Positions 8,463 to 40,900 of a DNA stretch of 64,000 nucleotides are shown piece by piece (position 1 is the first letter of the stretch; each line of letters opens with the position of its first letter). A program made the position numbers and the translations under genes. Below the pieces are notes generated by a model that had not been told where the DNA came from, made no database searches, and saw only the letters and a list, made by a program, of their open reading frames with translations. This stretch comes from a virus: the IMG/VR virus record IMGVR_UViG_3300033153_008361, positions 1-64,000 of that record; one strand, 5' to 3'.

Positions 8463-8473
8463 ATTATCTCGCC

Positions 8474-8944
8474 TTATGCGAAGGTGATGGCTGGCGAAAT
8501 GTAAACGCTGCCATCGCTCTGAACCACGTTCAAATACCAAGTGCCGGCACCGGCCTCACCAATATCGAAGTCGAGTTCCCCGTTTACATCTGTTAGCAAC
8601 TCGAAATAGATGTCGGCCGTATGCTCAATCAGGATGGTGCCTTTGGCGCTAATCGCCACATCACCGTCCGGGGCGGTTGTTGTTGGGGGATTCGGACCGC
8701 CGTTTCCATCAGCCAGCCACGCCACAAGATGTTTGACTTCCTCTAGCGGATTGCCCTCAGCGTCGAATACCTCTAATTCAACCAAGATTGAATCACCGCC
8801 CTCAGCGCCAACCGTGATGTCAATGGTCCAGCCAATTCCCAGCCCTTGCTGAATCTGGGCCAAATTTAACTCGAAAAGAGCATCAATGATGCCCTCTCCG
8901 CCACAATTTCTGATTTCATACTCAGTTGTACTTTGACAGGCCAT
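8474..8944 (-). CDS. hypothetical protein (beta-rich, possible Ig-like or decoration protein)
   Basis: ORF track. GGAGTAGCAC precedes the ATG. It lies within the head module. Confidence 0.6.
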   Translation of the reverse strand: MACQSTTEYEIRNCGGEGIIDALFELNLAQIQQGLGIGWTIDITVGAEGGDSILVELEVFDAEGNPLEEVKHLVAWLADGNGGPNPPTTTAPDGDVAISAKGTILIEHTADIYFELLTDVNGELDFDIGEAGAGTWYLNVVQSDGSVYISPAITFA

Positions 8945-9336: not shown

Positions 9337-9549
9337 CTATCCAATAAGTGAGGGGGGATCAACAGACATTATTCCCCGAGATGCTGGCCCGACAGACGCT
9401 TGCCGGGTCACTTGAAACCTTCCGTCAATGACTTTGCCCTGAACCAGCTTTTTACATTGGCGACATTGTAACTGGACCTCGCTACCTTCCGTTGCCTGAC
9501 CTCGGATGTGCTTGCAACCAGGACATCGACAATCAATATATATAGGCAT
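9337..9549 (-). CDS. zinc-ribbon protein (Mu Com-like, tentative)
   Basis: Two CxxC pairs, CPGC...CRQC, are spaced as in Com-type zinc ribbons. Confidence 0.5.
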   Translation of the reverse strand: MPIYIDCRCPGCKHIRGQATEGSEVQLQCRQCKKLVQGKVIDGRFQVTRQASVGPASRGIMSVDPPSLIG

Positions 9550-13422: not shown

Positions 13423-13459
13423 AAAAAAACCCGCGCCGTAAAGTGTTACGACGCGGGTT
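13423..13459 (-). terminator. rho-independent terminator
   Basis: The minus strand reads CCCGCGTCGTAAC-act-TTACGGCGCGGG followed by TTTTTTT. Confidence 0.8.
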
Positions 13460-14245: not shown

Positions 14246-15229
14246 TTATTCGCACATTCCTCTCATATCACAAGATAGGGTATCGTCATCGTCTAACCGA
14301 TGAAACAACTCATACTGTCGAGCACCCCAAGCGGTTTTGGACCATGCAACAATATCCCGGATTGTTGCTACATTCATCTTTTCGCCATCGGCCGTAGTTA
14401 TTTCTTTAGTCCGCCATCGCTCGGGCACTGTTTTCCTGGCAAACATAGACGAAAACATATTAGAATTATCGCTAAAATAGCCTTCCTTTGACTCAATGAA
14501 GTCAATACGCTCAGGCCGGTAATGAGCAATCGCCCTGATTTCCCGTTTGGATGAATTGATGCAAGGAAAACACCCAACTCTCCTAGCCCCCATATCATAC
14601 AGCGGGTTTCTTGGCACACCGGTTGTCCTAACCCTTTGGATTAACTCTAAACGGGTCGTTAATGGGACACCCTCATCATCCTTTATTATTTCAACAACGT
14701 CCTCAACATCCAAGTATTTACGGTGCGCTTCCCAAATATCATCTAAGGACCATTCATAAATTGGCAAAAACTTGTCACACCCGTAGGTGTCATCATAATG
14801 AAATTGGTCCAAGTCTCCCCGGTCATTTGCACTATGCCCCTCTGCTTTACGAATACCGCTAAGAGCCAGGACTTTCCCTTTTTCTTTTAGTTCTTCAATA
14901 TGTTTCATGGACGGAATAACTTTCAATATCTGAGTGCAAAACCGTGCTCTCCTTGAAGGAAACCGTTTTTTCTTTCGGGCCAGTTCATAAAAGCCAATAC
15001 CTGGATCAATTGTCTGGATCGGGAATACACGCTCTGAGAGCATCGCCAGATAATTGTATGTCAACACATCCTCATTATCGGTGTCACAGAAAGTGGCGAC
15101 TATTCTTGAAGTAGGCCACCCACTTTCATAAATGAGCCATAACAAGGTCGCTGTGCTATCTTTTCCCCCACTGATCCCGATATGATAGACATCGTAGTCT
15201 AGGGGATCAAATTCTTCGGGTCTAATCAT
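14246..15229 (-). CDS. PAPS reductase-like PP-loop enzyme (DndC/CysH superfamily)
   Basis: It carries the PP-loop motif ISGGKDST near the N-terminus and C-terminal Cys residues. Start is ATG 15229, in an ATGA overlap with the terminase stop. Confidence 0.75.
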   Translation of the reverse strand: MIRPEEFDPLDYDVYHIGISGGKDSTATLLWLIYESGWPTSRIVATFCDTDNEDVLTYNYLAMLSERVFPIQTIDPGIGFYELARKKKRFPSRRARFCTQILKVIPSMKHIEELKEKGKVLALSGIRKAEGHSANDRGDLDQFHYDDTYGCDKFLPIYEWSLDDIWEAHRKYLDVEDVVEIIKDDEGVPLTTRLELIQRVRTTGVPRNPLYDMGARRVGCFPCINSSKREIRAIAHYRPERIDFIESKEGYFSDNSNMFSSMFARKTVPERWRTKEITTADGEKMNVATIRDIVAWSKTAWGARQYELFHRLDDDDTLSCDMRGMCE

Positions 15230-16908
15230 GCCTTTTTCCTTATTCCGCCCATCCAAGTGTTTTCCAAGGCGTATGATAACATGAGGGCTTCCATCTCATC
15301 GGGCGAAAAGGTCAGGCGCTTTCTCATGATCTGTTTGGTAGTAACCCGTATCAGATTTTTTCCCGTAATTTCATAATCAACCGCCTTCAATGAATCGTGT
15401 AGGCGTCTACAGGCTTCGTTGTAGGTTTCTGGCGGGATGGCTATTTCACCCTTCCTGAAAACAGTTCTTAACGTCCAATATGACTCATCTCGAAGCTGGA
15501 AGAACTCAGCATAATCCGCTTCAACGCCGGCGGTCCCGCGGGCTGACTCGGCCACCATCACCCGGACAGCAACGATCCGCTTCCGGGGCGTCTGTCTCCG
15601 TCCCCACTTGACCATATTGCCGGGGGTGCCGGCCCCAACGCCTGTTGCATCAACCTTACACATCTTGGCATCACGCCTAATATACATCCTAGCTGCTTTA
15701 TCGGCCGCATCTGATGGGTCTGAGTCTTTCCAAAGTTCAGGAACATCAACCCACATGCCATACCGGAAGCAAGCAGAGTGATGGTCAGGACCGAAGTCGG
15801 CCACATCCAGCCCCATAGTTGGCTGAATCCCGGCCGGCGGGGTGACAATACCATCATGGGCCGCTCTCATCAGTTCCCATTTAGACACGGCCATATCTAT
15901 CCACTCATCCCATATCAGCCGATCCACTCCGCCAGGGGGGTATTGGCCGAGGACCTTATACCAAAACTGGTTGTCAATAACGACTCGTATACCTGGGAGA
16001 AGCGGCGGGATTATTGTCCCATCATTCATTTTCCCGGTGACACCATAAAGAAACTCGGGTATTTCCCAACAAGTGCTATTAACGTCCATGTCCAGGGGCT
16101 TCGGTTCGGTCCATAGATGGATACGTTCAACCGTTTTGGCCCTAGTGACCGCGCCGGGGATTATATCTTCCCCTGTCAGCACATTCGGATGGTCCAGGGC
16201 GCTCATTTCGATGACTAAGGCCCGCCCCTCTTTTTCCCGGCGATATATTTCACCGGATTTTTTCTTGGGGTTGTAGCAAATAATTTGTCTTGCCATCCCG
16301 CCCGACATGCACCCGTCCATACCTTTATAAACTGGGTCCGGGATTCCGTCTCCTTCATCGGCTTCAAACACGATTACAGGAGCATGTTTACCTGACCATT
16401 TGGTTTCTATATCCTCATCACTACTGGAAACGGGTATCGTAACTCCAGTTATGAACTCTTTTGGATGCCGGGTAATGAACATCGAAGCCCGGATGTCATC
16501 ATCGGCAAACAATTCGGGGAATTCTTTTGTTAGGGAATAAATCTCAGCCCATAACAGGCGTTTCAAGTTGGCTTCTGGCGGGGCTGTGGTTGTGTAAACC
16601 TGAGAGCCGGGGTAAGCCTTATATATCCATATAGCTAACTGAGCCAGCCCGAAAGTTTTGCCTACACCCGTAGCCGATCTTATATGCACGATCTCAGTAT
16701 CCCGGACCGCTTCGAGCATTTCCACCTGCTTAGACCACAGGGTAGCGCCTAAAACCTCACTGACAAAGCCAACCGGGTCATCCTGGTAAATCTCATAGTT
16801 CCCGGCCGCATCAGGATCGAGCCCCTGGACAATCCCATCCCTGAAAAGATCGCCTATGGAAGGCTTCTTAGCTTCTTGTTTTAGCCTTTCTAGCTCATTC
16901 TGTTTCAT
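15226..16908 (-). CDS. terL: terminase large subunit
   Basis: Walker A is ATGVGKT and Walker B-like is VIVFEADEGD. The C-terminal RNase H-like part contains GLDVADFG. Size is 560 aa. Confidence 0.85.
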   Translation of the reverse strand: MKQNELERLKQEAKKPSIGDLFRDGIVQGLDPDAAGNYEIYQDDPVGFVSEVLGATLWSKQVEMLEAVRDTEIVHIRSATGVGKTFGLAQLAIWIYKAYPGSQVYTTTAPPEANLKRLLWAEIYSLTKEFPELFADDDIRASMFITRHPKEFITGVTIPVSSSDEDIETKWSGKHAPVIVFEADEGDGIPDPVYKGMDGCMSGGMARQIICYNPKKKSGEIYRREKEGRALVIEMSALDHPNVLTGEDIIPGAVTRAKTVERIHLWTEPKPLDMDVNSTCWEIPEFLYGVTGKMNDGTIIPPLLPGIRVVIDNQFWYKVLGQYPPGGVDRLIWDEWIDMAVSKWELMRAAHDGIVTPPAGIQPTMGLDVADFGPDHHSACFRYGMWVDVPELWKDSDPSDAADKAARMYIRRDAKMCKVDATGVGAGTPGNMVKWGRRQTPRKRIVAVRVMVAESARGTAGVEADYAEFFQLRDESYWTLRTVFRKGEIAIPPETYNEACRRLHDSLKAVDYEITGKNLIRVTTKQIMRKRLTFSPDEMEALMLSYALENTWMGGIRKKA

Positions 16909-24051: not shown

Positions 24052-24351
24052 TTAGACAAACACCGAGAAAACCAAAATGATGAAAGCCACAATTATGAGG
24101 ATGAGGATCGCACGGTTCATTGTGCGCTGCCTGTCATAGCGGTCCCTCAGCTTGTCATACTGCTCAGCATAAATGAGTTCTCGGAAGGTCTCACCGCCGT
24201 CCTCGCTGGCCGCAAACTGACCGTCCTCAGTACGGATCATGACAATGAGATTGTCATCCTCGATAAACATCTTCATATCGACAAGATCCTCACCCGCATC
24301 ACCTACGGTTACTTCTGCCCATCCATCAGGCGGGTTAGAACGGGATTTCAT
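24052..24351 (-). CDS. small protein with C-terminal transmembrane helix
   Basis: The C-terminus is AILILIIVAFIILVFSVFV. Confidence 0.5.
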   Translation of the reverse strand: MKSRSNPPDGWAEVTVGDAGEDLVDMKMFIEDDNLIVMIRTEDGQFAASEDGGETFRELIYAEQYDKLRDRYDRQRTMNRAILILIIVAFIILVFSVFV

Positions 24352-24748
24352 CTTCTTCCTCTGGATGCTGCTGGCCCTGGCTTTGCGTCCTTTCGCCGGC
24401 GTCTCCGCCAGAAACGAATCGCCATTCAGTGACAGTGATCTCGTAAGAAGCTGCCATTACCCCGTCTTTCCGCTCGTAGACACGGGGATTACCAGTCTGT
24501 GGATCGGGTTTTAACCGTCCCTCGACATAAATGGCCTGTCCCTTGATGAAGTGCTCATTGATCACTTCGGCCGACTTGTTCCATGCTGAGCACCGAACCC
24601 AAACGGTCTCTTTCATCTGTTCGCCCTCAGCATTTTTCCAGGTCCGGTTTGTCGCCACGCTGAAATTGGTGACGGCCGTACCGTCCGCCATGTAGCTCAT
24701 GGTCGGATCTTGTCCTAGATTTCCTAACAGAATTACTTTGTTGTGCAT
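24335..24748 (-). CDS. ssb: single-stranded DNA-binding protein
   Basis: The OB-fold N-terminus is NKVILLGNLGQDP..VTNFSVATN. The acidic tail ends in EEEDEIPF. Confidence 0.9.
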   Translation of the reverse strand: MHNKVILLGNLGQDPTMSYMADGTAVTNFSVATNRTWKNAEGEQMKETVWVRCSAWNKSAEVINEHFIKGQAIYVEGRLKPDPQTGNPRVYERKDGVMAASYEITVTEWRFVSGGDAGERTQSQGQQHPEEEDEIPF

Positions 24749-28387: not shown

Positions 28388-28639
28388 CTATTTATCTCCT
28401 GCTACAGGTGAGTTGAATATGTCAACTAGCTCATGCAAATCCCAGCTGGCACCGGAACTCTCCATAAGGTTCGCCTGTAGAATATGCTTTATACACGTTT
28501 CTTTTTGCCCGGTGAGGATTTCTTCGACATCAACGCCCATCATTTCAAGCATGGTCGCCAATGCCAATGCCCGAAGATGCCAATGGTCTTTGTCATGAAA
28601 AACTTTATTGACTAATGAATCAGGAACCACTATCCGCAT
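28388..28639 (-). CDS. hypothetical protein
   Basis: ORF track. It has a GGGGGAAAC RBS. Confidence 0.5.
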   Translation of the reverse strand: MRIVVPDSLVNKVFHDKDHWHLRALALATMLEMMGVDVEEILTGQKETCIKHILQANLMESSGASWDLHELVDIFNSPVAGDK

Positions 28640-29118
28640 ATTTGTTTCCCCCTTCGATGAAGCTGCCTGTTAATTTCTTTTTCAATCTCATCCGGGACCT
28701 GCCAAAGGCTTAAATGCCCGCGGGCCGGGATTGGTTCATCCAATTTAATCACATCCTCGAATACCCACCCATAAGGCCCAAAGAACCATTTGTCATGACT
28801 CTCAATGACAACCCTGGCTATAACGGCCGTGGCAACAATCTTGCCCAACGGCACAGGAACTACATGGACCTCACGCTTGCTTATTCGCAAGATGCTTTCG
28901 GCCGAGAAGTGATCCATCCCCAAGCTGGCATGTAGCGCGATCCGCTGGCCGAGTGCATCGAATCTAAGATTGTTGACTAGCATTTGCAAGGGCGTAGCAT
29001 AGCCAGATAAATAATCATGATAATCCCCTCTTTGGGCATCCTTGATGATCCGCTCATTGATCCCGGCCGCTTTCAGGGCATCAACTAACTTCTTAATCGT
29101 CGGCCAGTCGTCTGACAT
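28630..29118 (-). CDS. ASCH (PUA-like) domain protein (tentative)
   Basis: The C-terminal half, VVPVPLGKIVATAVIARVV...PARGHLSLWQVP, resembles phage ASCH domains. Confidence 0.45.
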   Translation of the reverse strand: MSDDWPTIKKLVDALKAAGINERIIKDAQRGDYHDYLSGYATPLQMLVNNLRFDALGQRIALHASLGMDHFSAESILRISKREVHVVPVPLGKIVATAVIARVVIESHDKWFFGPYGWVFEDVIKLDEPIPARGHLSLWQVPDEIEKEINRQLHRRGKQICG

Positions 29119-29507
29119 TATTCCCCCTTGTCCGCTTGGTCAGGACTTACGTCCGGCCGATCAGGGCTCTTATCTGGCTTGTCCGGGCTTTCGCTCGGTG
29201 GCTCGGACCATATCGGGATGGTAAAGACCGAATTGAATAACTCAGCCGACATGATGATGTTCTTGCTGAAAAACTCCTGTTGTTCCTTCAATTCCTTGCT
29301 CTGGTTGATGAGCAATAATAGTAGGGGTTCTGTGTCTACCGTAGTTTTTCCATAGTCCGGTATATCTATATCCGTGCCTTTCTCTCTGCCCCGACGAACA
29401 GCATTTATTATCTTGTCCAGGGCTTTCACCCTGGTATCAATAGTTGCCAATTGTCCCAGTACAACATTCACCCTCGATATAGCCGTGTCCCTTTTTTGGT
29501 TATTCAT
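29118..29507 (-). CDS. hypothetical protein with Pro/Asp/Ser-rich tail
   Basis: ATG 29507 follows the upstream stop (TAACCATG). The tail is SEPPSESPDKPDKSPDRPDVSPD. Confidence 0.5.
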   Translation of the reverse strand: MNNQKRDTAISRVNVVLGQLATIDTRVKALDKIINAVRRGREKGTDIDIPDYGKTTVDTEPLLLLLINQSKELKEQQEFFSKNIIMSAELFNSVFTIPIWSEPPSESPDKPDKSPDRPDVSPDQADKGE

Positions 29508-30085: not shown

Positions 30086-30330
30086 GCTAACCCCCTTATC
30101 TCCGCTTCGATCTCCTGGATTTGTCGTTTGAGACCGCGGGCCTCAAATTCGATTAATTCCAGTTCTTCTTTCATATCTGGTAGTTTTTTACGAAGTTCGG
30201 CCAGTTTTTCAGCATTTTCGGCCTTTTTTCGGTCGTTTTTCAGCACTTCCACAGCTTCATCAGAACCGAAATGAAGCCGCGTCATAGCGGAACAAAAATC
30301 AATTGTTTCGTCGGTCTGATGTTTAGCCAT
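30082..30330 (-). CDS. hypothetical coiled-coil protein
   Basis: ORF track. It has a GGGGGGATA RBS. Confidence 0.5.
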   Translation of the reverse strand: MAKHQTDETIDFCSAMTRLHFGSDEAVEVLKNDRKKAENAEKLAELRKKLPDMKEELELIEFEARGLKRQIQEIEAEIRGLA

Positions 30331-30628
30331 TATCCCCCCGCCGTTTTACCTCTCCATAGGTCTTTTGCTCCCACTCCTGGAAAGTGGCAATGGTTGTTGG
30401 GGTGACTTCCAGCGCACCGCCAGGAAGCCGATCCAGCACTCCGCGCCGGCCGAGTCTACGCAAACACCTTCGAGCGCCATTGTCAATGTTGTCCCGGTGC
30501 GGGAAGGCGGTCGTGGGCACTACCCGGTCCCCCACATAGTAAAACTTGTCGAAAAGCCTCTCTAAGGCTCTCCCCTGTGCGGCCGTGATCTCGATTTTTG
30601 TAAGCTGCTCCGCTTCATCTCTGTCCAT
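30323..30628 (-). CDS. first gene of the leftward operon, hypothetical
   Basis: Start moved to ATG 30628 (MDRDEAEQ). It is preceded by GGAAGGAGTAGCGAAATG, a copy of the conserved initiation motif. Confidence 0.55.
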   Translation of the reverse strand: MDRDEAEQLTKIEITAAQGRALERLFDKFYYVGDRVVPTTAFPHRDNIDNGARRCLRRLGRRGVLDRLPGGALEVTPTTIATFQEWEQKTYGEVKRRGDNG

Positions 30629-30648
30629 TTCGCTACTCCTTCCTAATA

Positions 30649-30970
30649 CCCCCATATGTGGCCCTGGCTGAGCCTAAACCCGCGTTTTGGGCCGGCCGTG
30701 TCTACATATGGGGGGTCTGGTGCGGCTTGTAGTAACTACAATAGCATCGTCCAACCTTCAAGTTACTACCCGTTGCCCGGATTCCACAGGTCGTCCACCG
30801 TCACCTTGTACCGTGTCTTGCGGCTCAGCTATTAGCCGATTAAAAGCCGTGTCCTGCGGCCGGCCGGTGTTCCGCGTCTCCTTCTCCTACCTTGTTAAAG
30901 CAGGTCCGGCCGTTCCCCCGCGCCCTAAGCACAAGGACTACCGGACCTGCGAGGTTTAACCTACCGCACC
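30649..30970 (-). ncRNA. candidate structured RNA / long structured 5' leader of the leftward operon
   Basis: Nested perfect stems are present. They are 30649-59/30704-14 (11 bp), 30719-25/30964-70 (7 bp, closing), 30729-37/30761-69 (9 bp) and 30900-09/30941-50 (10 bp). A direct repeat CCGTGTCYTGCGG lies near 30821 and 30848. There is no credible ORF. The strand is inferred from the promoter at 31124-31152. Confidence 0.45.
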
Positions 30971-31022
30971 GTAAAGGGCTGTTTTATATGGTCGTCACGC
31001 TTCGACCTATACTTTTGTTAAA

Positions 31023-31114
31023 GAATCGCCCTGGACAATAATTCTACTTATCCCTGATTGCTCATCAACGTGCGGGTCAATTCGCAATACCTTATATATG
31101 GTGCCAGGGCGATT
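31023..31114. promoter_or_regulatory. 11-bp inverted repeat pair flanking 70 nt
   Basis: AATCGCCCTGG (31023-33) pairs with CCAGGGCGATT (31104-14). It lies immediately downstream of the predicted leftward transcription start. Confidence 0.5.
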
Positions 31115-31123
31115 ACGCTTTCT

Positions 31124-31152
31124 ATAATATCAGATGTTATAGTGTTGGTCAA
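31124..31152 (-). promoter_or_regulatory. sigma70-like leftward promoter
   Basis: The minus strand reads TTGACC (31152-47), a 17-nt spacer, then TATTAT (31129-24). Confidence 0.5.
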
Positions 31153-31607
31153 GGGCAAAGCTGCACAGGCTTGAGCTATATGGCTCAGCTGGGGGGGCTT
31201 GGGATCTCGTCACCCATTTTAGGCTATCGAATCCGGCCGTTGAATCCTACCATGATCGATTATGATAACCTAGATTGTAATAATCGATCAGGCGGTCCGC
31301 CTGATGACAGGCAGAAGCAGCGGAGATCGAGCGGTCCGCCTGTCTCCCTGATGACACAGAAGCAGAAGCGGAGATCGCCTGAGCGGACCGCGGTTTTTTT
31401 CTGTTTGTTTTTTTCTGTCTGCTTAGATAATGTTTTTCTGTGTCTGTGTCGCTGTCTCCCTGTCTGCCTGATGAGACACAGAAGCGGACCGCCTGATCGG
31501 TCTGTGTGTGTGTTTGATGAGACAGAAGCGGACCGCCTGATCGGTCTGTGTGTCTCCCTGTGTGGCGATCTCTGTGTGTGTCTGCTTCTGTGTCCGCTTC
31601 TGTGTCT

Positions 31608-31631
31608 CCGCCTAATACAGGCGGGTTTTTT
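31608..31631 (+). terminator. terminator-like hairpin
   Basis: CCGCCT-aatac-AGGCGG is followed by GTTTTTT. Confidence 0.55.
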
Positions 31632-31747
31632 CTGTCTGTGTGTCGAGATCAGGCGGAGATCGGACCGCTCAGGCGATCTCTGCTTCTGTGTCGCATTCTA
31701 AGCGGAGACAGGCGGAGATCAGGCGGTCCGCTTTCTATATAGTACAG

Positions 31748-31772
31748 ACCGCCTATTTTTGTGGCGGTTTTT
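31748..31772 (+). terminator. terminator-like hairpin
   Basis: ACCGCC-tatttttgt-GGCGGT is followed by TTTT. It sits just upstream of the rightward promoter. Confidence 0.5.
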
Positions 31773-31786
31773 CCCTGTGATCTCAC

Positions 31787-31816
31787 TTGACAATAATTGA
31801 CATTATAGGTTATGAT
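31787..31816 (+). promoter_or_regulatory. sigma70-like rightward promoter
   Basis: TTGACA (31787-92), an 18-nt spacer, then TATGAT (31811-16). It is followed by the hairpin GGTCCGCGG-aaaaa-CCGCGGACC. Confidence 0.45.
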
Positions 31817-31882
31817 TTAGGTCCGCGGAAAAACCGCGGACCGCTCAGGCAGACACAAGAACACACAAGGAGTAAAGCGATA

Positions 31883-32356
31883 ATGACAGGCATTACAGAG
31901 AATACAGGAAAAACCGATCTAATTATTAGAGATCACAGACTCACAGAAGCGGACCGCCTGTATAAAAAATCATTCGATCTACACTTGAAAGCGGAGACAC
32001 AACTCGCACTATCTGAGATCATACGAGATCAGGCGGTCCGCTTAAAACTACAGGCGGAGAAAGCAGAAGCAGAAGCGGAGACAGGCGATCATTATATGGT
32101 TTTTCATTTTACTTGTGATCTAGTCATAGGGCACAATTTTACAGGGAGTGAAGTTATATTTTCCGCTATAGATGAGATCGAGATCATAAGACACACAGAA
32201 GCGGACCGCAAAAAATACGATCAATTAATTGTCCGCTTCTGCTTAGAAAAAAATCCGCTATTCCATATTGATACATTGTATTTTACTCTGAGCGATATAT
32301 CACATATTGACGATCACACAGGCGGACAATATAAACTCACAGAGATCACAATATAA
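31883..32356 (+). CDS. small TEADR-motif protein, paralog family member
   Basis: ATG 31883 follows AAGGAGTAAAGCGATA. The track start at 31787 is the promoter TTGACA. The protein has TEADRL, AEAEAE, DHYMVF and EIEI blocks shared with 32596-32913. Confidence 0.65.
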   Translation: MTGITENTGKTDLIIRDHRLTEADRLYKKSFDLHLKAETQLALSEIIRDQAVRLKLQAEKAEAEAETGDHYMVFHFTCDLVIGHNFTGSEVIFSAIDEIEIIRHTEADRKKYDQLIVRFCLEKNPLFHIDTLYFTLSDISHIDDHTGGQYKLTEITI

Positions 32357-32411
32357 CGGACCGCGGACCGCTCAGGCGGTCCGCCTGTACTTTACAAGGA
32401 GTAAAGCGATT
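32357..32411 (+). repeat. intercistronic hairpin-plus-RBS cassette, copy 1
   Basis: CGGACC-GCGGACCGC-TCAG-GCGGTCCGC-CTGTACTTTAC-AAGGAGTAAAGCGATT, then ATG. Confidence 0.85.
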
Positions 32412-32537
32412 ATGATCAAAGTATGGTTTTTTTGTGTTCTTGTTAGCATTCTGCTTTTGTACTACACAGAAGCGATCACAGCGGTTTTTTTTCTGATCGC
32501 TGTGGTTTTATATGAAACATGGAAGACGATCAATTAA
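32412..32537 (+). CDS. 41-aa membrane micropeptide
   Basis: The ATG follows the conserved cassette. The product is MIKVWFFCVLVSILLLYYTEAITAVFFLIAVVLYETWKTIN. Confidence 0.5.
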   Translation: MIKVWFFCVLVSILLLYYTEAITAVFFLIAVVLYETWKTIN

Positions 32538-32595
32538 TATCAGACCGCGGACCGCTCAGGCGGTCCGCCTGTACTTTACAAGGAGTAAAGCGATA
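32538..32595 (+). repeat. intercistronic hairpin-plus-RBS cassette, copy 2
   Basis: The stem is 32547-55/32560-68 (9 bp, perfect) with loop TCAG. CTGTACTTTACAAGGAGTAAAGCGATA follows. Confidence 0.85.
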
Positions 32596-32913
32596 ATGAA
32601 CGATCACATATTGACAGAAGCAGCGGAGACAGAAGCGGACCGCCTAAGCATAGAAGCGGAGATCAAGCGATCTCACACTCGACACAGAGAGACTCACCAC
32701 AGCGATCATTTTATGGTTTTTTCTGTCTGTGGTGATTTTACCCATTATGATCACCTGATCGCTTCTGTCTCCCTGATGGCAGACACAGAGATCGAGATCG
32801 ATTATATTGGCGAGCACACTATGATCGGTCTGATTATTTTGCCAAATGCTACAGAAGCGGAGATCACAGAAGCGGACCGCCTGTATAGTGAATTACAAGG
32901 AGTAAAGCGATAA
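32596..32913 (+). CDS. small TEADR-motif protein, paralog family member
   Basis: ATG 32596 (MNDHILTEAAETEADRL). DHFMVF and EIEI blocks are shared with 31883-32356. The ORF ends inside the next initiation motif (TAATG). Confidence 0.65.
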   Translation: MNDHILTEAAETEADRLSIEAEIKRSHTRHRETHHSDHFMVFSVCGDFTHYDHLIASVSLMADTEIEIDYIGEHTMIGLIILPNATEAEITEADRLYSELQGVKR

Positions 32914-33410
32914 TGACACACAACAATTGTGGTTTTAACAGACCACAGAGATCGAGCGGTCCGCGGTCCGCTTCTGTACTTTCTCCGCCTGAGTGTGAGA
33001 ACACATGGCGATCAGAGATAAAAAACCGCCACACATGCAAAGTAAAAAATACACAGGGAGACTCCGATCTCACTCTGATCTCTGACACACAGGAGATCGA
33101 TCACATTGGCGATTATTTAGGCATTAATCGCCTGAGTGAGGATTATGGTTGTCTGTTTGTCGAGATCGCTGATGGCGATTATGGTCATATATTGGGCTGT
33201 GAGTCTAATATTCCATACTTAGAAAAAATATTATATGACATAGATTATTATGAGGAAACATGGCGGTTTTTTCAGGAGATCGCAGAAAAACACAGCGAGA
33301 TCTATTGTCCTATGTGTGGCGGAGACTCCGCTCACTTGGGCACACTTGGCACACTTGATCATTATCGCTGTGTAATGTGTCATATGGAATTCTCACGATC
33401 TCAGGAGTAA
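32913..33410 (+). CDS. hypothetical protein with C-terminal zinc ribbon
   Basis: It follows the conserved initiation motif. It contains CPMCGG...HYRCVMC. Confidence 0.6.
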   Translation: MTHNNCGFNRPQRSSGPRSASVLSPPECENTWRSEIKNRHTCKVKNTQGDSDLTLISDTQEIDHIGDYLGINRLSEDYGCLFVEIADGDYGHILGCESNIPYLEKILYDIDYYEETWRFFQEIAEKHSEIYCPMCGGDSAHLGTLGTLDHYRCVMCHMEFSRSQE

Positions 33411-33420
33411 AGCGATAATA

Positions 33421-33476
33421 ACAGACCGCGGACCGCTCAGGCGGTCCGCCTACACTTTACAAGGAGTAAAGCGATA
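33421..33476 (+). repeat. intercistronic hairpin-plus-RBS cassette, copy 3
   Basis: It has the same unit with CTACACTTTAC. It is preceded at 33404 by a degenerate initiation motif lacking an ATG (GGAGTAAAGCGATAATA). Confidence 0.85.
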
Positions 33477-33791
33477 ATGAACGATCAAACAATAGCAGAG
33501 ATGGCATATACAGAAGCGGACCGCCTGAACACAGAAGCGGACCGCCTACAGGCAGAAGCGATCAAAATACAGGCAGAAGCGGACCGCCTGATCGAAAAAA
33601 TCACGAGCGGACCGCCTGATCTTGTGTATTACCAATACACAGGGAGATCGGATTTTTTCAATTATGAGAATTCGGGTGATCTCTGTTTTCACACTCCGCC
33701 ACAAGCGGAGAAAGCAGCGATCAATAATGGATTAATTACATGGCGAGTGATCATGGTCTGTGAGTATGTTGTCAAGACAGGGAAAGTATAA
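33477..33791 (+). CDS. small TEADR-motif protein, paralog family member
   Basis: MNDQTIAEMAYTEADRLNTEADRLQAEAIKIQAEADRL... Confidence 0.65.
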   Translation: MNDQTIAEMAYTEADRLNTEADRLQAEAIKIQAEADRLIEKITSGPPDLVYYQYTGRSDFFNYENSGDLCFHTPPQAEKAAINNGLITWRVIMVCEYVVKTGKV

Positions 33792-33792
33792 A

Positions 33793-34458
33793 ATGAACGA
33801 TCTAATACTGGCAGAAGCGGAAAAAAAGAAAGCAGAAGCGGACCGCCACAGAAAAACCGCGGACCGCCTGATCGCAGAAGCGGACCGCCTGTCAAACGTA
33901 TTTTATCTTAGAGATGAGATCGCAGAGAAAGCGGACCGCCTACAGGCAGAAGCGGACCGCCTGATCGCTTTCGCTGATCGCCTGATGGCAGAAGCGGAGA
34001 AAGCAGAAGCGGACCGCCTGATCGATAAAATCAGAAGCGGAGAAAAAATCAGAACATGGAAACATAAAACCGGCCTGTTTTTTATCGATCAGGAGATCAC
34101 AGAGATCGAGATCGAATTATGGCAGACAGGCAGAAGCAGAAGCGGAGACAGAGATCGCCTGTCTTATGTTTTAAGTGAGAATAGTGTGCCTGTATTTTAT
34201 GGTTTATCTGATCTAGGAATTCCGCCACACATGGCAATAGATAGCGATCTCTCTGTGTGTGCCTGTCTGTTTTTTCTCGCACTCAGGCAGGGAGACACAG
34301 ACAGTGATTATTTTGAAAACTACACAGACACACAATTACAATGGATACACTCACAGACCGCCACAGAGATCAGGGAGATCGTGAGCATATGTGAGGAAAA
34401 TGATCTCACACTCGATCAGGCGATCTCTGTTATGTTAGCATGGGAAACAGAAAAATAA
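33793..34458 (+). CDS. ADRL-repeat coiled-coil protein, paralog family member
   Basis: ATG 33793 (MNDLILAEAEKKKAEADRH). Seven ADR(L/H) repeats are present. It has a GGGAAAG RBS. Confidence 0.65.
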   Translation: MNDLILAEAEKKKAEADRHRKTADRLIAEADRLSNVFYLRDEIAEKADRLQAEADRLIAFADRLMAEAEKAEADRLIDKIRSGEKIRTWKHKTGLFFIDQEITEIEIELWQTGRSRSGDRDRLSYVLSENSVPVFYGLSDLGIPPHMAIDSDLSVCACLFFLALRQGDTDSDYFENYTDTQLQWIHSQTATEIREIVSICEENDLTLDQAISVMLAWETEK

Positions 34459-34516
34459 TATCAGACCGCGGACCGCTCAGGCGGTCCGCCTGTACTTTAC
34501 AAGGAGTAAAGCGATT
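34459..34516 (+). repeat. intercistronic hairpin-plus-RBS cassette, copy 4
   Basis: It is identical in core to copy 2. Confidence 0.85.
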
Positions 34517-34969
34517 ATGATCAGTTTAGAAGCAGCAAAAAATCTCACACATGGCGAGATCATTTATCACATAAGTCATAGGAATGCCGATCAGACTCCG
34601 CAGAGATGGCGCATTAATGGCAAAGTGAAAACATGGAGAACCAGACCACAGGAGATCAGTATACCTATAAAACACGGTTTATATGATTATGGTTATTTAA
34701 CACACAATGATCTTGATCTTGTGTGTCTGTCAGAAGCAGAAGCGGAGATCGTGACGAACTCAGGCACAGAGATCGGACATTATGATTATTTATATCGAAA
34801 CATAAAACACAGAGATTATATTTATGGCTGTGTGTTACCACAGGCGGACCGCCTACAGAGATCGATCATTGTAGGCGGAGATCGGACAATTGATGATCAG
34901 GGAGTGACAACAATTACAGGCGGAATCACCTATTATTTTCCTATAGGTGAGGAATCCGGCCTAAATTGA
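34517..34969 (+). CDS. hypothetical protein
   Basis: ORF track. It follows the conserved cassette. Confidence 0.6.
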   Translation: MISLEAAKNLTHGEIIYHISHRNADQTPQRWRINGKVKTWRTRPQEISIPIKHGLYDYGYLTHNDLDLVCLSEAEAEIVTNSGTEIGHYDYLYRNIKHRDYIYGCVLPQADRLQRSIIVGGDRTIDDQGVTTITGGITYYFPIGEESGLN

Positions 34970-34998
34970 CAGAAAAACCACAAACAGACCACAAACAG

Positions 34999-35036
34999 AC
35001 CACAGAGATCGATCAGGTGATCTCTGTGGTTTTTTC
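34999..35036 (+). terminator. rho-independent terminator
   Basis: ACCACAGAGATC-gatcaggt-GATCTCTGTGGT is followed by TTTTT. Confidence 0.8.
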
Positions 35037-35560
35037 TGTGTGTAGACCACAGAAGCAGCGGAGATCGGACCGCCTGAGCGGTCCGCCTGTCTGCCTGTCT
35101 GCTTCTGCGGTCTGTGTGCCTGTCTCCCTGTCACTTTGATCGAGATCGGACCGCTCAGGCGGTTTTTTTCCGATCAGGCGGTCCGCCTGTCTGCCTGTCT
35201 GCTTCTGCTTCTGTGGTCTGTGTCATCAGGCAGAAGCAGAAGCAGAGATCGCCTGAGCGGACAATACAGGCGATCTCTGTGTCTGCCTGTCTGCTTCTGC
35301 CTGTCTCCGCTGCTTCTGCTTCTGCTTCTGCGGTCTGTGTGTCTGTCTCCCTGTCACTTTGATCGAGATCGGACCGCTCAGGCGGAGATCGATCAGGCGG
35401 TCCGCCTGTCTGCTTCTGTTATCCCAGGACACAGACCGCCACAGAGATCAGGCGGACCGCGGACCGCTCAGGCGGAGATCGATCAGGCGGTCCGCCTGTC
35501 TTCCCAGCTGGGATCGGCCGACTGGCAGAAGCAGCGGAGATCAGGCGATCATGGTTCATT
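35037..35560. repeat. word-repeat island B (ORF-free)
   Basis: It uses the same vocabulary. A 62-bp direct repeat (35101-35162 and 35324-35385) has one mismatch. A long imperfect palindrome lies at 35224-35300. Confidence 0.85.
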
Positions 35561-35691
35561 CACACGCGCAAAAATGATCGGTGAGCAGAATTTTATAATG
35601 TTTTCGGCCGGGTCTTTTTGGTTTTTCTGGTTTTTTTTATTGGTTTACGGCCGGGTTTTTCCGGCGCGATTACACACAAGGAGTAAAGTAT

Positions 35692-36063
35692 ATGATCACA
35701 GCTATAGTTATGGGCGCATATGGTAAAAAAGATGAGTACAGAGTGGATCGACTTGCTAACCGTGGCGAGTGGTTCGGTAAAACTTGGTTCGTTGGGATCG
35801 GTTGCGGGTTCGATATACACCGCGTAGTAGTAGAAGCGGACAATGAGTCAGAGGTGATCGACGCCTTGACGGATTCGGCCGCTGGTCACTTGATAAAAGT
35901 TGATGAGGAATGCCCCCATCAAGATCCTGATCAATGGGATCAATGTAATTGCACATTTGCCGGTAATTTTTCTGATCGCGTCGATCTGGATGACATTCGA
36001 ATTCTGAAGCGTTGCAAAGTAAAATATTTTGAACCGGCCGATCGTTGGTTGGATATTAGCTAA
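35692..36063 (+). CDS. hypothetical protein
   Basis: ORF track. It has an AAGGAGTAAAGTAT start region. Confidence 0.6.
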   Translation: MITAIVMGAYGKKDEYRVDRLANRGEWFGKTWFVGIGCGFDIHRVVVEADNESEVIDALTDSAAGHLIKVDEECPHQDPDQWDQCNCTFAGNFSDRVDLDDIRILKRCKVKYFEPADRWLDIS

Positions 36064-36420
36064 ACAGACAGACACAGACCACAGGATCAGACAGGATCGG
36101 CCGGTTTTCGGCCGGTCCTGAGTGTGATCGCGTCTCTGTATGGTTTTACCTGTCTGCCTGTCTGCCTGTCTGCCTGAGCGGAGATCGGACCGCTTGATCG
36201 GTCTGCTTCTGCTTCTGTGTCTCCGCTTGTGCCTGTCTGCCTGTGTTCTCATTGGGCGGACCGCTCAGGCGATCTCTGTGTGTGTGTCCGCCTGTCTGCC
36301 TGTGTCCTCATCAGGCGGACCGCTCAGGCGATCTCTGTGTCTCCCTGTCTGCCTGTCTGCTTCTGTGTGTCTGCCTGTGTCCTCATCAGGCGGAGATCGG
36401 CCGGTTCTACCACAGGTAAA
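36064..36420. repeat. word-repeat island C (ORF-free)
   Basis: It has CTGTCTGCCTGTCTGCC runs. GCGGACCGCTCAGGCGATCTCTGTGT occurs twice, near 36256 and 36315. Confidence 0.85.
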
Positions 36421-36532
36421 ACGCGCCGGCGCGGAAAGTCTGAACGGCCGTTCGATCCTTGCCGGCCAACGGTCCGCGGCGAGTGTGGTCGAGCGGGCAG
36501 CGGGCGGACCGTGGGCGGGGGCGCTTCTACTA

Positions 36533-36640
36533 TATACACGCGGGATCGACATAGGCGAGCAGAATTTACACGCGCTAAGGGGTTCGGCCGCCTTAAAAAA
36601 TACACGCGGCCGGGGAGGTGCGAGCAGAATTTACACGCGG
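36533..36640. promoter_or_regulatory. tandem ~65-bp unit carrying a 20-bp perfect direct repeat (operator or iteron candidate)
   Basis: GCGAGCAGAATTTACACGCG occurs at 36555-74 and 36620-39. ATACACGCGG occurs at 36534 and 36600. A related copy (CACACGCGC...GAGCAGAATTT) lies at 35563-35594. Confidence 0.6.
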
Positions 36641-36697
36641 ATCGAAGGGGGGCGGGCTGGAGTTGGCAGCAAATCGGGCGGATCGGTTCTCATTTAC

Positions 36698-36725
36698 TTG
36701 ACAAGCAATTATAAGGTGTTATTAT
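36698..36725 (+). promoter_or_regulatory. sigma70-like promoter
   Basis: TTGACA (36698-703), a 16-nt spacer, then TATTAT (36720-25). Confidence 0.5.
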
Positions 36726-36781
36726 CTATCTATCCGACGCGGGCCGCGGGCGGTCCGCCTTAGTAATAAGGAGCAAGCGAA

Positions 36782-37549
36782 ATGATAAATGATCAGAATT
36801 TAGAGATCGGGCAATTGGTAAAGGTTAGCAGATCGCTCACCGTGGGCGATCTATATGGGGCGGGACATTCTCAGGCGGGGGAAGTGGTGATCGTGGCGGG
36901 GGAAGTCGGCCGGGTTATATCGCCTGTCATTGCAGAGGCGCGGGACGGGTCGAAGTTGGATCGGCCGTGGGTTGTGGTTCGCTTTTTCTTCACTTTGCCG
37001 GATCACTACCGGCGCGATCCAACCTGTGAACCGGTCCACAATATAAAGATCGGGCGGCTGGAAGCGGTGACAGAGGCGGAAGCGGTGATCCTGATTATGA
37101 TCGGGCGCTATGGTAAACCGTGGGCCAATACGAGACAGGATCGGGCGGCTATGGCCTCATATATGGATCAGCGGCCGTTATATGACGATCCCGGCGTTTT
37201 GGGTAACTGGAGATCAGCGGCTTCTATCTTGTCAGAAGTGGCGGAGCGGGTGAGCCTTGCTGCTTGGGGGGTTCATCCGGCCGGGGAGACGGATCTCACC
37301 GTATACATGGAAGCGGGCGATCCGGGTGAGCGGGTCAATTGTGAGGGGTTCGTTGTGGACGGGGACGGGGGGATCGTCTTTGATACTGTAGGCGGCGGGC
37401 CGTATCTCTGCGAAAGTTGCAACAAATCGATCCGGTTCTTGACATGCTCAGGGCGGGCGATCTGTGAGGCATGTCTGGACGCGGAGATCGCAGAGGCGGA
37501 AGCGGTGACAGGGGCGGGCTATATTACGCCTAATGAGGCGATCATATAA
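36782..37549 (+). CDS. hypothetical protein
   Basis: ORF track. It has an AAGGAGCAAGCGAA start region. The C-terminus contains CESC...CEAC. Confidence 0.65.
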   Translation: MINDQNLEIGQLVKVSRSLTVGDLYGAGHSQAGEVVIVAGEVGRVISPVIAEARDGSKLDRPWVVVRFFFTLPDHYRRDPTCEPVHNIKIGRLEAVTEAEAVILIMIGRYGKPWANTRQDRAAMASYMDQRPLYDDPGVLGNWRSAASILSEVAERVSLAAWGVHPAGETDLTVYMEAGDPGERVNCEGFVVDGDGGIVFDTVGGGPYLCESCNKSIRFLTCSGRAICEACLDAEIAEAEAVTGAGYITPNEAII

Positions 37550-37914
37550 TGGCTATACGAAACGGTATAAAGTGGGGTAACGGGCGGATCTGGCAAATGA
37601 TCGGGAAAGCAGCAAGGGAAGCGGAGCGGGCCGAGCAGATCGAGCGGGTGAAAGCAGAGACGGCCGCGGGGGGTTTTCCGCTGTGCCTCTGTGACATATG
37701 CCTATATTATGAAAACGATCCCGCGGACCGGGCCAAGTGGCGGATCATTATGCACAGGCGGCGATCACAACTGATCGCGCTTAGCCGTCACTATCTGCGA
37801 AACTTTCACGGCTTCACAGCGGCGGAGTGTGATCAGTTCGGTCCTGAGTGTGATCGGGTCATTCTGGCACATAATGACGCGGCGATCCGTTGTGGCGGTG
37901 ATCCTATTGTATAA
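37549..37914 (+). CDS. hypothetical protein
   Basis: ORF track. It has a TAATG junction. Confidence 0.6.
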   Translation: MAIRNGIKWGNGRIWQMIGKAAREAERAEQIERVKAETAAGGFPLCLCDICLYYENDPADRAKWRIIMHRRRSQLIALSRHYLRNFHGFTAAECDQFGPECDRVILAHNDAAIRCGGDPIV

Positions 37915-37961
37915 CCAACGCGGGCCGGGTTCGGCTTGCCTTAGCTAAGGAGTAAAGCGAA

Positions 37962-40900
37962 ATGATACAGATCCACGATAAACAGACAGAAGCGAACGCG
38001 GGCCAAGCGGAACGGGCGACACTTTACCACCGATCCGGGCTTGGCCTTGGTTATAACAAGCGGGAAGTAAAGCGGATCGAATGGGCGCGGGGTCAATATG
38101 CCCAATATGATCAGGCGGTCCGGCTACGCTGGAGAGAACCCCGGCAACGCAAAGATCGCCAAACATGGCTCACTTATAAGCCGGACGCGGTGATCGTGGC
38201 GGGCTGGAATAACCCCGATCCGCCGTCCTCATATAACACAACTAAGGACAAAGACGGAACGATCCAACGCGGGAAATATACCAGTTTCGATCCCCGCTTT
38301 ACTTCCGATTTTCGGTCATGGCTTGCGGACGCGGGCCTCACGGTGATCGCGGACTTTCACAAGGCGGAGACAGGCGATCAGGGGTCGATCTCCCTTACAG
38401 AGATCGCGGAGCGGGGGCGGGCTGAGCGAGAAGCAGAAGCGGAGAAAGCAACGCGGATCGCGTCTGTTATAACGGAAGCAGAACCGGCCGAACTGGAAGC
38501 AGAGACGGAAGCGGGCGATCTTGGGGCTTATGATACGGCGGATAATTGGATCAATCGTTGGGGTGACTTCTACAAAGACACACAACAACACAACGCGGAA
38601 GCGGCCAAACTGGAAACAGAACCCGATCCCCTTGCTGATTATTCTAACGGGGATCTACTTGGTGATTATTTGGATCTGTGTCCTCATTATGATCAATCTG
38701 ATGAGGATATAACGGAGATCAGGACCGTACTCACGGCGCGGGGCTTCTTATTTGTGGCTCAGGCGGACGGGGGCGGGCCAACAGAGGCGGAAGTCAAAAC
38801 CACGGCGGATCGGCTCATCAGGGAAGCAAAAACGGCGGACCGGGCCAACGGACGCGGGCCGGGGTTCGATATATGGACTAAGGCACAAGCAGCGGCCAAA
38901 GCAGAAGCGGCGGAAGCTGAGCAACACGCGGAGACAGAACCCGCGGACCGGGTAAAGATTGAACCGGCCGACGCGGATCGCTTTGAATATATCGAACCCG
39001 AACCCGATCCAGTTATGCCAGCGGGCGCGGCGGAGTCAATCACAGGTAAAGAAGTTGGAAAAATGATCCGGCCACGGTTGCGGGCTATCTTTCCCGGCGT
39101 CACGTTCTATGTAAGGACTGATCATAGTTCACTTGATATAAGCTGGATCGACGGGCCAACGGGGGCGGAAGTCAAAAAGATCGCGGGCCAATATGACGGC
39201 GGCGGCTTCGATGGCATGATCGATCTTGGTTATTGTATTTATCATTGGTTAATGCCAGATGGATCGACGCGGATCGCCTATTCCAGCGGTACAGCGGGAT
39301 CGGGGGGTTCTGTGTCCGCGTTTGGCGGTGACGGGTCAAAGCCTGATCCGGGGGCGCGGTTGGTTAGCTTCCACACGGAATATATAAACTGTAAACGGGC
39401 GCATTCGGCCGACTTCTTAAAGCGGGCGGGGGAGCAAATCAGCGGTGAGTATAATTGGCCTGTGCCAAAGATTGAAGCTAGTACAACATGGATCTCACAC
39501 TCCAAAACTATTGACGGCGCGTCATTTGTCCATGATCCGATCAACGCTCCAGCCCCCGCGGATCATTTTCGGGCGGGCGGGTCGCCTTATGTCCGATCTT
39601 TGGGCGGGGTTTTCGATCACGCGGCTCACGATATAAGCTATTATGAACCGCCAAAAGCAAAGCCGAAAGCTAAGCGGGCCGCGGGCGGGGCTTCTGTCGA
39701 TTATGATCCCGCGGAAGCGGTGATCACCTATAGTGAGCGGAACGGCGCGATCTGGACATGGATCGAAACGGTAAAACCCCCGGCCGATGTGAGGGACGGG
39801 CTAACGGGGATCGGCTTCTTTTGGTGGCGGAAGCGGGGCAAATGGGCCGCCAAGCAAGAGATCGCAGAGGACACGATCCGCGCTATACTGGAAGGGGGAT
39901 CGGGCGCTCAGGGAGACGGGGACGGGGGCGGAGAAGCTGATCCGCCGTCCTCATCCCCAAGCAAGCCAAAGACTAAGGCCGAACCGGGGACAGAACCCGA
40001 TCAAGCTAAGGCGGAGAAGCTGATCGCCTTGGCGGACTCCTTCGACAAACAGATCCAAAAGAAGCGGGACACGTTCAAAGGGGCTAACCTCACTCACAGG
40101 CGGGCGGAGTTCATAGCGTCCGCAAACTATGACGCGGATCGAATGCAAGAAGCACAAATGATCCTGATCGCCTTGGCGGACCTGTGGACAGTTGGAAGCG
40201 TCCCGGCGCAATTTAGGAAAATGGGAACTAAAAAAACGGCGCTGGAGTTGACTCACAATATCCGGGCGCGGGCTAAGTATGGGGATAAGTACCCATCAGA
40301 CTATAATGATCGTGTTTGGGGGTCATGGGGCGATTATAACGCGGCTCACGCATGGGCGGACCGGGTGATCTCAGGGGTCGATAACACTGAGCGAGACGCG
40401 GAGCGAAAGATCGCCGGGCTGGAGCAAAACGCCAAATTTGCCAAGATCCGCGGGTTTTTCCCCACTCCGCGGGCCGTGGCGGATCTTATGCTGGAGCATG
40501 TGAACCTCACAGAGGGGGATCTTGTTTTAGAACCCTCAGCGGGATCGGGCGCTCTATGCGATATGATCGCGGAATACTTCCCACGCGCCACGCTTCACGC
40601 GGTCGAAGTGTCTCACATGCTCAGGGAGATCCTCACCTTAAAGGGGCACGAGTTGATCGGCCGGGACATTTACGATCTCGATCCTGTGGATAGCATCGGA
40701 AAATATGACGCGATCATAATGAATCCCCCATTTGAAAAAATGCAAGACGCCGATCACGTTCGCTTTTGTTATGCGATGTTAAAAAGCGGCGGAACGCTAG
40801 TGAGCGTTATGTCCCCGTCACCCTTCCACAATTCCACTCACGCGGCGGCGGATTTCCGATCATGGTTCGATACATTTGGCGGTGAGAAGTTCGATCTCCC

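Follow-up and report, generated by a model that had tools for sequence, protein, structure and literature searches.

A candidate structured 5′ leader at the head of the leftward transcription unit of an isolated uncultivated phage

In phage HK022, the put RNA, about 70 nucleotides (nt) long and built of two tandem stem-loops, occurs on both early arms; the early leader of T7 carries the RNase III site R0.3, and the ompA transcript bears a stabilising hairpin at its 5′ terminus. The N protein of lambda is disordered, with an arginine-rich motif at its N terminus. In lambda, about 200 nt of highly structured RNA separate nutL from N downstream, and translation of N is repressed from nutL (PMC5725501). 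The boxA consensus, GYTCTTTAANA, is a gamma-proteobacterial one (PMC5725501), and NusB reads the first 8 nt of boxA in a base-specific manner (PMC3177189). Here, we describe a leader of about 490 nt in IMG/VR virus record IMGVR_UViG_3300033153_008361, of which positions 1 to 64,000 were analysed (the window). It sits within a 1.25-kb gene-free region that separates two arms, with genes on the minus strand to the left of about 31 kb and on the plus strand to the right, and is most likely the 5′ untranslated region of the leftward early transcription unit, running uninterrupted from a promoter, PL, into a gene of 101 amino acids (aa). Our leading but tentative explanation, with a probability of about 0.45, is a lineage-specific structured leader that would affect its own mRNA by way of stability or processing, access to the ribosome-binding site (RBS), and avoidance of Rho.

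The promoter, the leader, and its predicted fold

A consensus scan places PL, a leftward sigma-70-type promoter with TTGACC, a 17-nt spacer, and TG-n-TATTAT, at 31124–31152 on the minus strand. The preliminary description had already pointed to this promoter, which matches the consensus at 10 of 12 positions, has the TG ahead of the −10 hexamer that marks an extended −10, and ranks among the best in the window. Transcription would start near 31116–31118, and we infer that the leader region is transcribed from there. No minus-strand promoter of comparable quality lies nearer the first ATG than PL, between 31124 and that codon, and the scan yields no plus-strand promoter to the left of the leader region. 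Within 30629–31120, no minus-strand terminator-like site (a hairpin then a U-tract) was found, and the stems inside the leader are followed by CUUUAAC or UAUUAGG; nor does the leader hold an intrinsic terminator together with a competing antiterminator, as would befit an attenuation leader or a riboswitch. The sign of the GC skew flips at about 31050–31150, that is, on PL, the cumulative GC-skew minimum is located here, and, like the leftward genes, the leader has more G than C and more A than T: G makes up 30.5% of its RNA and C 23%, and of 21 sliding windows of 78 nt, 19 have a C/G ratio below 1. Taken together, the promoter, the skew switch, the base bias, the absence of a minus-strand terminator or a closer promoter, the absence of a plus-strand promoter, and a G-U helix that forms on the minus strand only (below) favour, as indirect evidence, a leftward RNA starting near 31117.

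No credible open reading frame (ORF) had been reported between PL and the first gene, and this holds, as the longest minus-strand ORF reaches at most 36 aa. With training on the genes of the window, a dicodon coding score does not rise above 0 on either strand over 30625–31150, as opposed to 0.3–0.7 in neighbouring genes, Pfam matches of the leader ORFs are weak (E ≥ 0.02) and under curated cut-offs, and a tblastx search against related loci (see below) gives no protein remnant in the leader (E ≥ 0.01). On ORF length, dicodon score, Pfam, and tblastx, a missed small gene or a pseudogene was thus rejected. Apart from an adjoining repeat zone, the leader is the longest gene-free stretch, and the GC content is 0.55–0.60 at 30300–31000 versus about 0.47 in the flanks. 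It ends at the first leftward gene, whose ATG, placed at 30628 in the preliminary description, is correctly assigned: on the minus strand, read directly, the RBS AGGAAGGAG (30644–30636) is followed by a 7-nt spacer and the ATG (30628–30626), the whole covering 30626–30644.

The five stems named in that description are all present and perfect when the minus strand is read directly, and the partition function assigns their helices mean pair probabilities of 0.95–0.99. Perfect Watson-Crick stems of at least 9 bp number 5 in the leader, whereas 2000 dinucleotide shuffles average 0.305 and in no case (0/2000) reach 5; beyond the repeat zone, the window itself carries 104 such stems over about 58.6 kb, or about 0.87 per 492 nt, an empirical background of roughly three times the shuffle expectation. 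The minus strand of 30629–31120 has a minimum free energy (MFE) of −181.4 kcal/mol (z = −3.3), and the local stretch 30900–31049 reaches z = −3.7; when the boundaries are moved to 30656–31170, so that one arm of the last stem is truncated, z drops to only about −1.8 to −2.1. Neither GNRA nor UNCG tetraloops occur in the predicted fold. The structure signal is real but moderate.

The predicted fold opens on the minus strand with domain 1, a 5′-proximal three-way junction of 91 nt (31024–31114). Its closing helix (31114–31104/31034–31024; AAUCGCCCUGG/CCAGGGCGAUU) is a perfect 11 bp with a pair probability of 0.97, its inner hairpins have pair probabilities of 0.58–0.86, and the clamp so formed begins 2–4 nt past the inferred 5′ end. 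Domain 1 also has a UGAUGAG reminiscent of a hammerhead, an idea that was rejected, as no ribozyme matches even at E ≤ 10. A small minus-strand hairpin, GGUCG-AAGCGUGA-CGACC (30990–31007; pair probability 1.00), follows 7 nt after the first of two boxA-like 9-mers, copy A of CUUUAACAA; the scan flags this hairpin on the plus strand too. Next, also on the minus strand, comes an anti-Shine-Dalgarno-like GCCCUUU (30973–30979), which the partition function predicts to be the partner of the RBS at 30642–30635: the pairing of CCUUU (30977–30973) with GAAGG has a probability of 0.96, and the Shine-Dalgarno core an unpaired probability of 0.01–0.12.

Domain 2, the central multi-branch domain (30719–30970, minus strand), is closed with a pair probability of 0.99 by a helix of 7 bp (30970–30964/30725–30719), extended to 8 bp in the fold (30970–30963/30726–30719), and contains two hairpins, 30950–30900 and 30769–30729, plus a branched middle. 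The former (30900–30950, minus strand; pair probability 0.99) has 10 Watson-Crick pairs (30950–30941/30909–30900) and one G-U pair, and its loop holds a G-U-rich helix of 10 bp (30937–30928/30924–30915) that forms in minus-strand RNA only, with a probability of 0.92. The latter (30729–30769, minus strand; pair probability 0.99) has a perfect 9-bp stem, GUAGUAACU/AGUUACUAC (30769–30761/30737–30729). Read directly from the minus strand, a Shine-Dalgarno-like purine run, GGUAGGAGAAGGAGAC (30876–30891; predicted unpaired fraction 0.80), resembles the true ribosome-binding region, UAGGAAGGAGUAGC, and is followed by no start codon; a direct repeat in domain 2, GCCGCARGACACGG (30811–30860), has its two copies at 30860–47 and 30824–11, 36 nt apart. 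Short direct repeats within the leader comprise CTTTAACAA, ACCATATAWAA, and GCCGCARGACACGG. Domain 3 (30649–30714, minus strand) is a 66-nt irregular hairpin with 31-nt arms that are 74% complementary; its perfect 11-bp base (30714–30704/30659–30649) has a probability of 0.95, its inner part consists of about 13 weaker pairs (0.1–0.7), and its 3′ arm stops 4 nt short of the Shine-Dalgarno sequence.

The first gene, the boxA-like copies, and the terminators

The first leftward gene (30323–30628, minus strand, 101 aa) has ten remote homologs at 33–49% identity in a HMMER search and belongs to a family of small phage proteins of 80–101 aa with the motif AFPxRDNxDNGxRRxLRxLAxxGxL, although by word-based protein search it and the gene of 191 aa, the first two leftward genes, appear to be ORFans. 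In six other phage contigs, the homologs lie in rows of small genes without a long upstream gap, which suggests, as far as gene order can tell, that what the leader accompanies is the start of the transcription unit, here the arm, and not the family of the first gene. An ancient autoregulatory pairing of the product with the leader RNA is unlikely. An arginine-rich stretch occupies residues 53–62, in the middle of the conserved small domain. Among PDB sequences, the motif finds only a non-significant match to histone H4 residues 24–65 (E about 0.1), and an AlphaFold model of the product computed without an alignment has a mean pLDDT of 45, too low for use. The gene has a high GC content (0.57–0.60) and a low dicodon score relative to its neighbours.

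The 9-mer CUUUAACAA, corresponding to the boxA core, occurs twice in the leader, each time directly 3′ of a perfect stem. The last base of the domain 1 helix is also the first of copy A (31015–31023, minus strand; context GAUUCUUUAACAAAAG), and copy B (30892–30900, minus strand; context CCUGCUUUAACAAGG) starts at the last base of the 30950–30900 stem; the two lie 95 and 218 nt beyond the inferred 5′ end. The 3′ core of boxA, CTTTAACAA, is present 4 times in 64 kb versus 0.41 expected, and the sole two copies sense to local transcription stand 123 nt from each other in the leader. The predicted unpaired fraction is 0.70 for copy A and 0.65 for copy B, compared with a leader mean of 0.40, and each has the context of a boxA, being predicted single-stranded within a 5′ leader, with a promoter upstream and a hairpin adjacent. 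With respect to GYTCTTTAANA, which is gamma-proteobacterial and may not be the consensus of this host, copy A (ATTCTTTAACA) has 1 mismatch, at the first G (position 1), and copy B (CTGCTTTAACA), subject to the same proviso, has 2, at positions 1 and 3. Neither copy thus fits the consensus, which makes membership less likely, though the boxA of the host may differ. The mismatches fall at the 5′ positions that NusB reads, matches of equal quality in the window number 80 versus 84.9 expected, which is chance level, no near-match with up to 2 mismatches occurs in the leader of the one relative that can be compared (L122, below), and no boxA-like copy lies downstream of the rightward promoter. Because of these four points, the likeness to boxA would appear, at the level of sequence, to be one of resemblance and not of membership. 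In addition, no boxC-like GU-rich tract is found in the leader.

The statement that the downstream operon passes at least four intrinsic terminators is roughly right, in that three strong intergenic ones (13459–13428, 9271–9246, and 4908–4872) and two weaker ones (19348–19334, within an ORF, and 8900–8872) were located; terminator-like sites as such are at chance level in 11–30.7 kb (20 versus 17.9). The terminators at 13428–13459 and 4872–4908 consist of 14- and 15-bp stems and T runs, directly before gene starts, and no sigma-70 promoter was found between either and the following genes, so the downstream genes need read-through or another kind of promoter. The third strong terminator, 9271–9246, is of a different setting. 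It lies about 25 nt after the inferred start of a minus-strand promoter with 11 of 12 matches (TTGACA-18-TATACT, 9334–9305) and is followed by AAGGAG, the ATG at 9225, and the head genes, a layout like lambda PR′-tR′; by this analogy, late control of the head genes is probably separate and protein-based. The promoter-terminator unit at 9334–9246 weakens the premise, implicit in the preliminary description, of a single 27-kb transcript from 31.1 kb. A small minus-strand ORF with a CxxC...CxxC (zinc-ribbon) pattern (9337–9549) precedes this promoter and has no significant Pfam match.

Genome setting, relatives, and other elements

The window comes from the genome of an uncultivated and very isolated phage, about 90 kb in size and almost without relatives. 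Recognisable genes include those for a large terminase (15226–16908, minus strand), a capsid-like protein (7266–8540), a DpdA/PAPS-reductase-like protein (14246–15256), SSB (24335–24748), DnaB (55160–56527), and several DNA methyltransferases; neither tRNA nor tmRNA was found. Among 50,697 phage records, neither the window nor the segment 30300–31900 has a nucleotide match, and the best match of the terminase is 36% identical. An exact 27-mer of the leader has no match in viral and metagenome collections.

A search of Rfam, which the preliminary description had proposed with large phage-associated RNAs included, gives 0 matches across the whole window at gathering thresholds. Under relaxed settings, 30300–31900 yields four chance-level matches (E 3–8) to eukaryotic microRNA and long non-coding RNA models and to DnaX, the single one overlapping the leader being DLEU2_4 at 30947–31027 on the plus strand. 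Given that Rfam 15 covers riboswitches, ribozymes, large RNAs of the GOLLD/ROOL type, and phage RNAs, the leader would, as judged by these searches, belong to no described RNA family. Related loci were fetched by means of an ASCH-like gene (28630–29118) 1.5 kb away, giving 112 loci and about 1.1 Mb, and several genes are shared with the window only in L121–L125 and L134, where the terminase is about 50% identical. Against these loci, the leader returns nothing by blastn, nhmmer, tblastx, or a covariance model of the promoter-proximal module; in the window, the covariance model of 31118–30985 matches itself alone, without a copy on the rightward arm. The region is carried by two further metagenome contigs, L120 and L233, which show few differences from the window, at 28574, in a gap-and-N stretch at 29110–29151, and at 31467, 31820, and 32207.

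Of the relatives, only L122 extends into its own divergent control region, which is arranged as in the window: a dense short-repeat zone, a promoter, about 345 nt free of genes, an 11-bp G-rich stem, GGAG, and an ATG. Its promoter, TTGCCCaac-17-TGcTATGCT, resembles TTGACCaac-17-TGaTATTAT of the window, the two sharing TTGnCCAAC...TGnTAT, and its stem (2754–2764/2845–2855), which includes two G-U pairs that form on the sense strand only, ends 5 nt before GGAG. In both genomes, therefore, an 11-bp stem stands 4–5 nt ahead of the Shine-Dalgarno sequence. It appears that a long leader with a stem abutting the RBS is kept in this phage group and that the particular RNA fold is not. For the first gene of L122, viral contigs gave no relatives. 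The L122 control region (1850–2380) is dense in short repeats of the CAGGCC/GACC type and has three runs of 8–10 G (2300–2355) upstream of the promoter equivalent to the leftward one; these repeats parallel the repeat zone of the window and are unrelated to it in sequence.

Several other elements were noted in the window. A 15-mer, GCGGACCGCCTGATC, with the core palindrome AGGCGGWCCGCCT, has 28 copies with up to 2 mismatches at 31286–40370, versus 0.08 expected, all of them confined to the opening 9 kb of the rightward arm; the leader and the leftward arm have none. The copies occur in both orientations, between genes and inside ORFs, where they encode EADRL-type peptides, and inverted pairs make GC-rich hairpins between early genes; scans of viral contigs for this 15-mer gave single chance matches only. 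Between PL and the repeat zone lies a near-perfect palindrome with 19-nt arms and no spacer (31253–31290; TGATCGATTATGATAACCT/AGATTGTAATAATCGATCA), a candidate operator or initiation site. At 54131–54238, in a gap before the gene at 54238, a perfect 15-bp stem (54147–54161/54208–54222) is enclosed in a 10-bp stem (z about −4), and a strong hairpin between convergent genes at 62347–62372 (z −5 to −6) is probably a bidirectional terminator. The minus strand at 389–3121 carries a series of ORFs of about 104–148 aa, probably tandem paralogs, which share the 11-mer ATCGCCCTGGA (at 195, 798, 2364, and 3081) and have TTGGCA-17-GATACT promoter-like sequences at 703, 1129, and 2674.

Weighing the explanations and comparison with known systems

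If the leader is a structured element of its own message, it would act in cis on that message and not on the polymerase. The 5′ clamp and the RBS-proximal hairpin may set the stability of the mRNA and possibly offer processing sites to a double-strand-specific RNase, pairing of the Shine-Dalgarno core with the upstream CCUUU would hold down translation of the first gene, and a G-rich, tightly folded RNA would present no Rho loading site over 490 untranslated nt, the C/G ratio below 1 almost throughout making it a poor Rho-loading substrate. Were it functional, the first gene of one divergent arm would be controlled by a long, tightly folded untranslated RNA that is in no RNA family database. 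Several observations weigh against such a role. The stem excess is about 6-fold against the background of the window, and not the 16-fold seen against shuffles; the plus strand of 30629–31120 folds with an MFE of −172.7 kcal/mol and the stronger z of −4.3. Perfect stems fit either strand equally and do not discriminate between them, G-U pairs in the whole folds are equal across strands (19 versus 18), and the RBS-adjacent hairpin pairs slightly better on the plus strand. The pairing at the Shine-Dalgarno sequence spans 340 nt and is a thermodynamic prediction only. L120 and L233 are 100% identical to the window over the leader and hence offer no variation from which covariation could be read. 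For L122, the leader shows no significant structure (z = −1.2) and is unalignable with that of the window, so that conservation of a structured RNA in the phage group is not supported. Of the earlier reading, the leftward regulatory leader stands, on the promoter, the lack of an ORF or terminator, and the skew; the put-like antitermination element found no positive evidence.

A cis-acting processive antitermination element, whose RNA would modify the polymerase so that it reads through terminators, is unlikely, whether hairpin and CUUUAACAA modules were to recruit host NusB/S10 and other Nus factors in the style of the rRNA leader or lambda nut, or the RNA were to bind polymerase directly, as put does. 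The arrangement of copy A, 7 nt, and a 5-bp hairpin is that of lambda nut, the CTTTAACAA excess has both its sense copies at stem ends in the leader and predicted single-stranded, and the terminators at 13459–13428 and 4908–4872, standing before gene starts, require some read-through; lambda, too, has highly structured RNA in the roughly 200 nt between nutL and N (PMC5725501). Yet neither copy fits the boxA consensus, of which such matches occur at chance frequency, the deviations are at positions read by NusB (PMC3177189), and a boxC-like GU-rich tract is missing from the leader. The L122 leader has no near-match, no second copy lies beyond the rightward promoter, and the head genes have a promoter and an early terminator of their own (9334–9246). 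The arginine-rich stretch of the first gene product lies mid-domain, unlike that of lambda N. The put style in particular has against it the lack of an Rfam match, a promoter-proximal 91-nt three-way junction in place of two tandem hairpins, and the lack of a second copy. If hairpin and CUUUAACAA modules did recruit Nus factors, Nus-dependent control would reach a phage unrelated to the lambdoids and without an N-like protein. A bolder form, in which a new large cis-acting RNA of about 450 nt equips polymerase started at PL, alone or via degenerate boxA-type Nus sites, to pass the strong terminators before the morphogenesis genes, is very unlikely; if true, it would add to nut and put a third kind of processive antitermination that works through RNA.

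That the leader is a spacer without sequence-specific function, left by decayed palindromes or as a by-product of a GC-rich foreign insert, is about equally unlikely. Conservation is confined to identical copies, the leader of L122 is not significantly structured, the stem background of the genome is about three times that of shuffles, z depends on the boundaries chosen, and GNRA and UNCG tetraloops are lacking. However, five perfect stems of 9–11 bp in 492 nt exceed the empirical 0.87 or so, they nest into a consistent architecture with pair probabilities of 0.95–0.99, phages have compact genomes and no other stretch here beyond the repeat zone goes so long without a gene, and a long leader stands at the equivalent position of L122 despite complete sequence turnover. 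Quite unlikely is a role at the DNA level, with the repeats as a protein-binding, cruciform, origin, or other initiation site in the 1.25-kb control region. Stem arms 23–70 nt apart and a nested closing helix do not resemble operators, the leader lacks the abundant 15-mer of the repeat zone, and the skew switch coincides with the change in transcription direction, so it pinpoints no origin; such a role would fit with perfect Watson-Crick stems that fold as well or better on the plus strand, the dense repeat zone (31285–31850) and 19-nt-arm palindrome (31253–31290) that the leader adjoins, its short direct repeats, and the cumulative GC-skew minimum. A replication origin was rejected, as the region has no DnaA-box matches and its GC richness (0.55–0.60) is ill-suited to unwinding. 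Highly improbable, finally, is a free-standing or processed trans-acting non-coding RNA of about 400–460 nt, made from PL with cleavage near the RBS-proximal hairpin or from the plus strand. Its size and multi-domain nested fold would resemble those of large structured RNAs, and the 66-nt irregular hairpin next to the RBS could be a cleavage site; no minus-strand terminator provides a 3′ end, though, no plus-strand promoter lies to the left, Rfam has no match at gathering or relaxed thresholds, and about 1.1 Mb of related phage DNA holds no homolog. GGA motifs, about 12 as counted by eye, equal the roughly 12 estimated from base composition, on which ground a CsrA-type sponge was rejected.

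At present, the structured leader of this phage is one more candidate of its kind, the value of which lies in a defined, synthesisable element of 490 nt, and its likeness to the described systems is partial in each case. Similar to HK022 put, it would be an RNA directly downstream of an early phage promoter, with cis action as proposed in the preliminary description; unlike put, it has a 91-nt three-way junction in a 490-nt leader and in a single copy, and the features by which put is recognised, as given at the outset, were not found. With the rRNA operon leader, it has in common a hairpin followed by CUUUAACAA, a motif predicted to be single-stranded, and an untranslated, G-rich, structured transcript that needs to escape Rho. 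In contrast to that leader, its copies deviate within the first three boxA positions read by NusB (PMC3177189), boxC is lacking, the context is that of a phage, and the element is duplicated. The T7 R0.3 and ompA leaders show no sequence relationship to it, and, compared with the irregular hairpin of about two helical turns close before the RBS in RNase III-processed phage leaders such as those of lambda N and T7 R0.3, domain 3 offers 11 perfect bp and about 13 weaker pairs, its inner part having a low pair probability; alike are the several hundred untranslated nt, the long irregular hairpin before the first RBS, and the stem near the 5′ end. As for lambda PL-nutL-N, the window has neither nut elements on both arms nor an N-like protein: its leader is about twice as long, its boxA-like copies are off consensus, the rightward arm lacks the element, and the first gene product, which reads as a compact conserved domain, is unrelated to N; no sequence homology links the two systems. 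Shared with lambda are an early sigma-70 promoter, a long untranslated leader, a small first gene of about 100 aa, a boxA-like element with a small hairpin near the 5′ end, and structured RNA up to the RBS.

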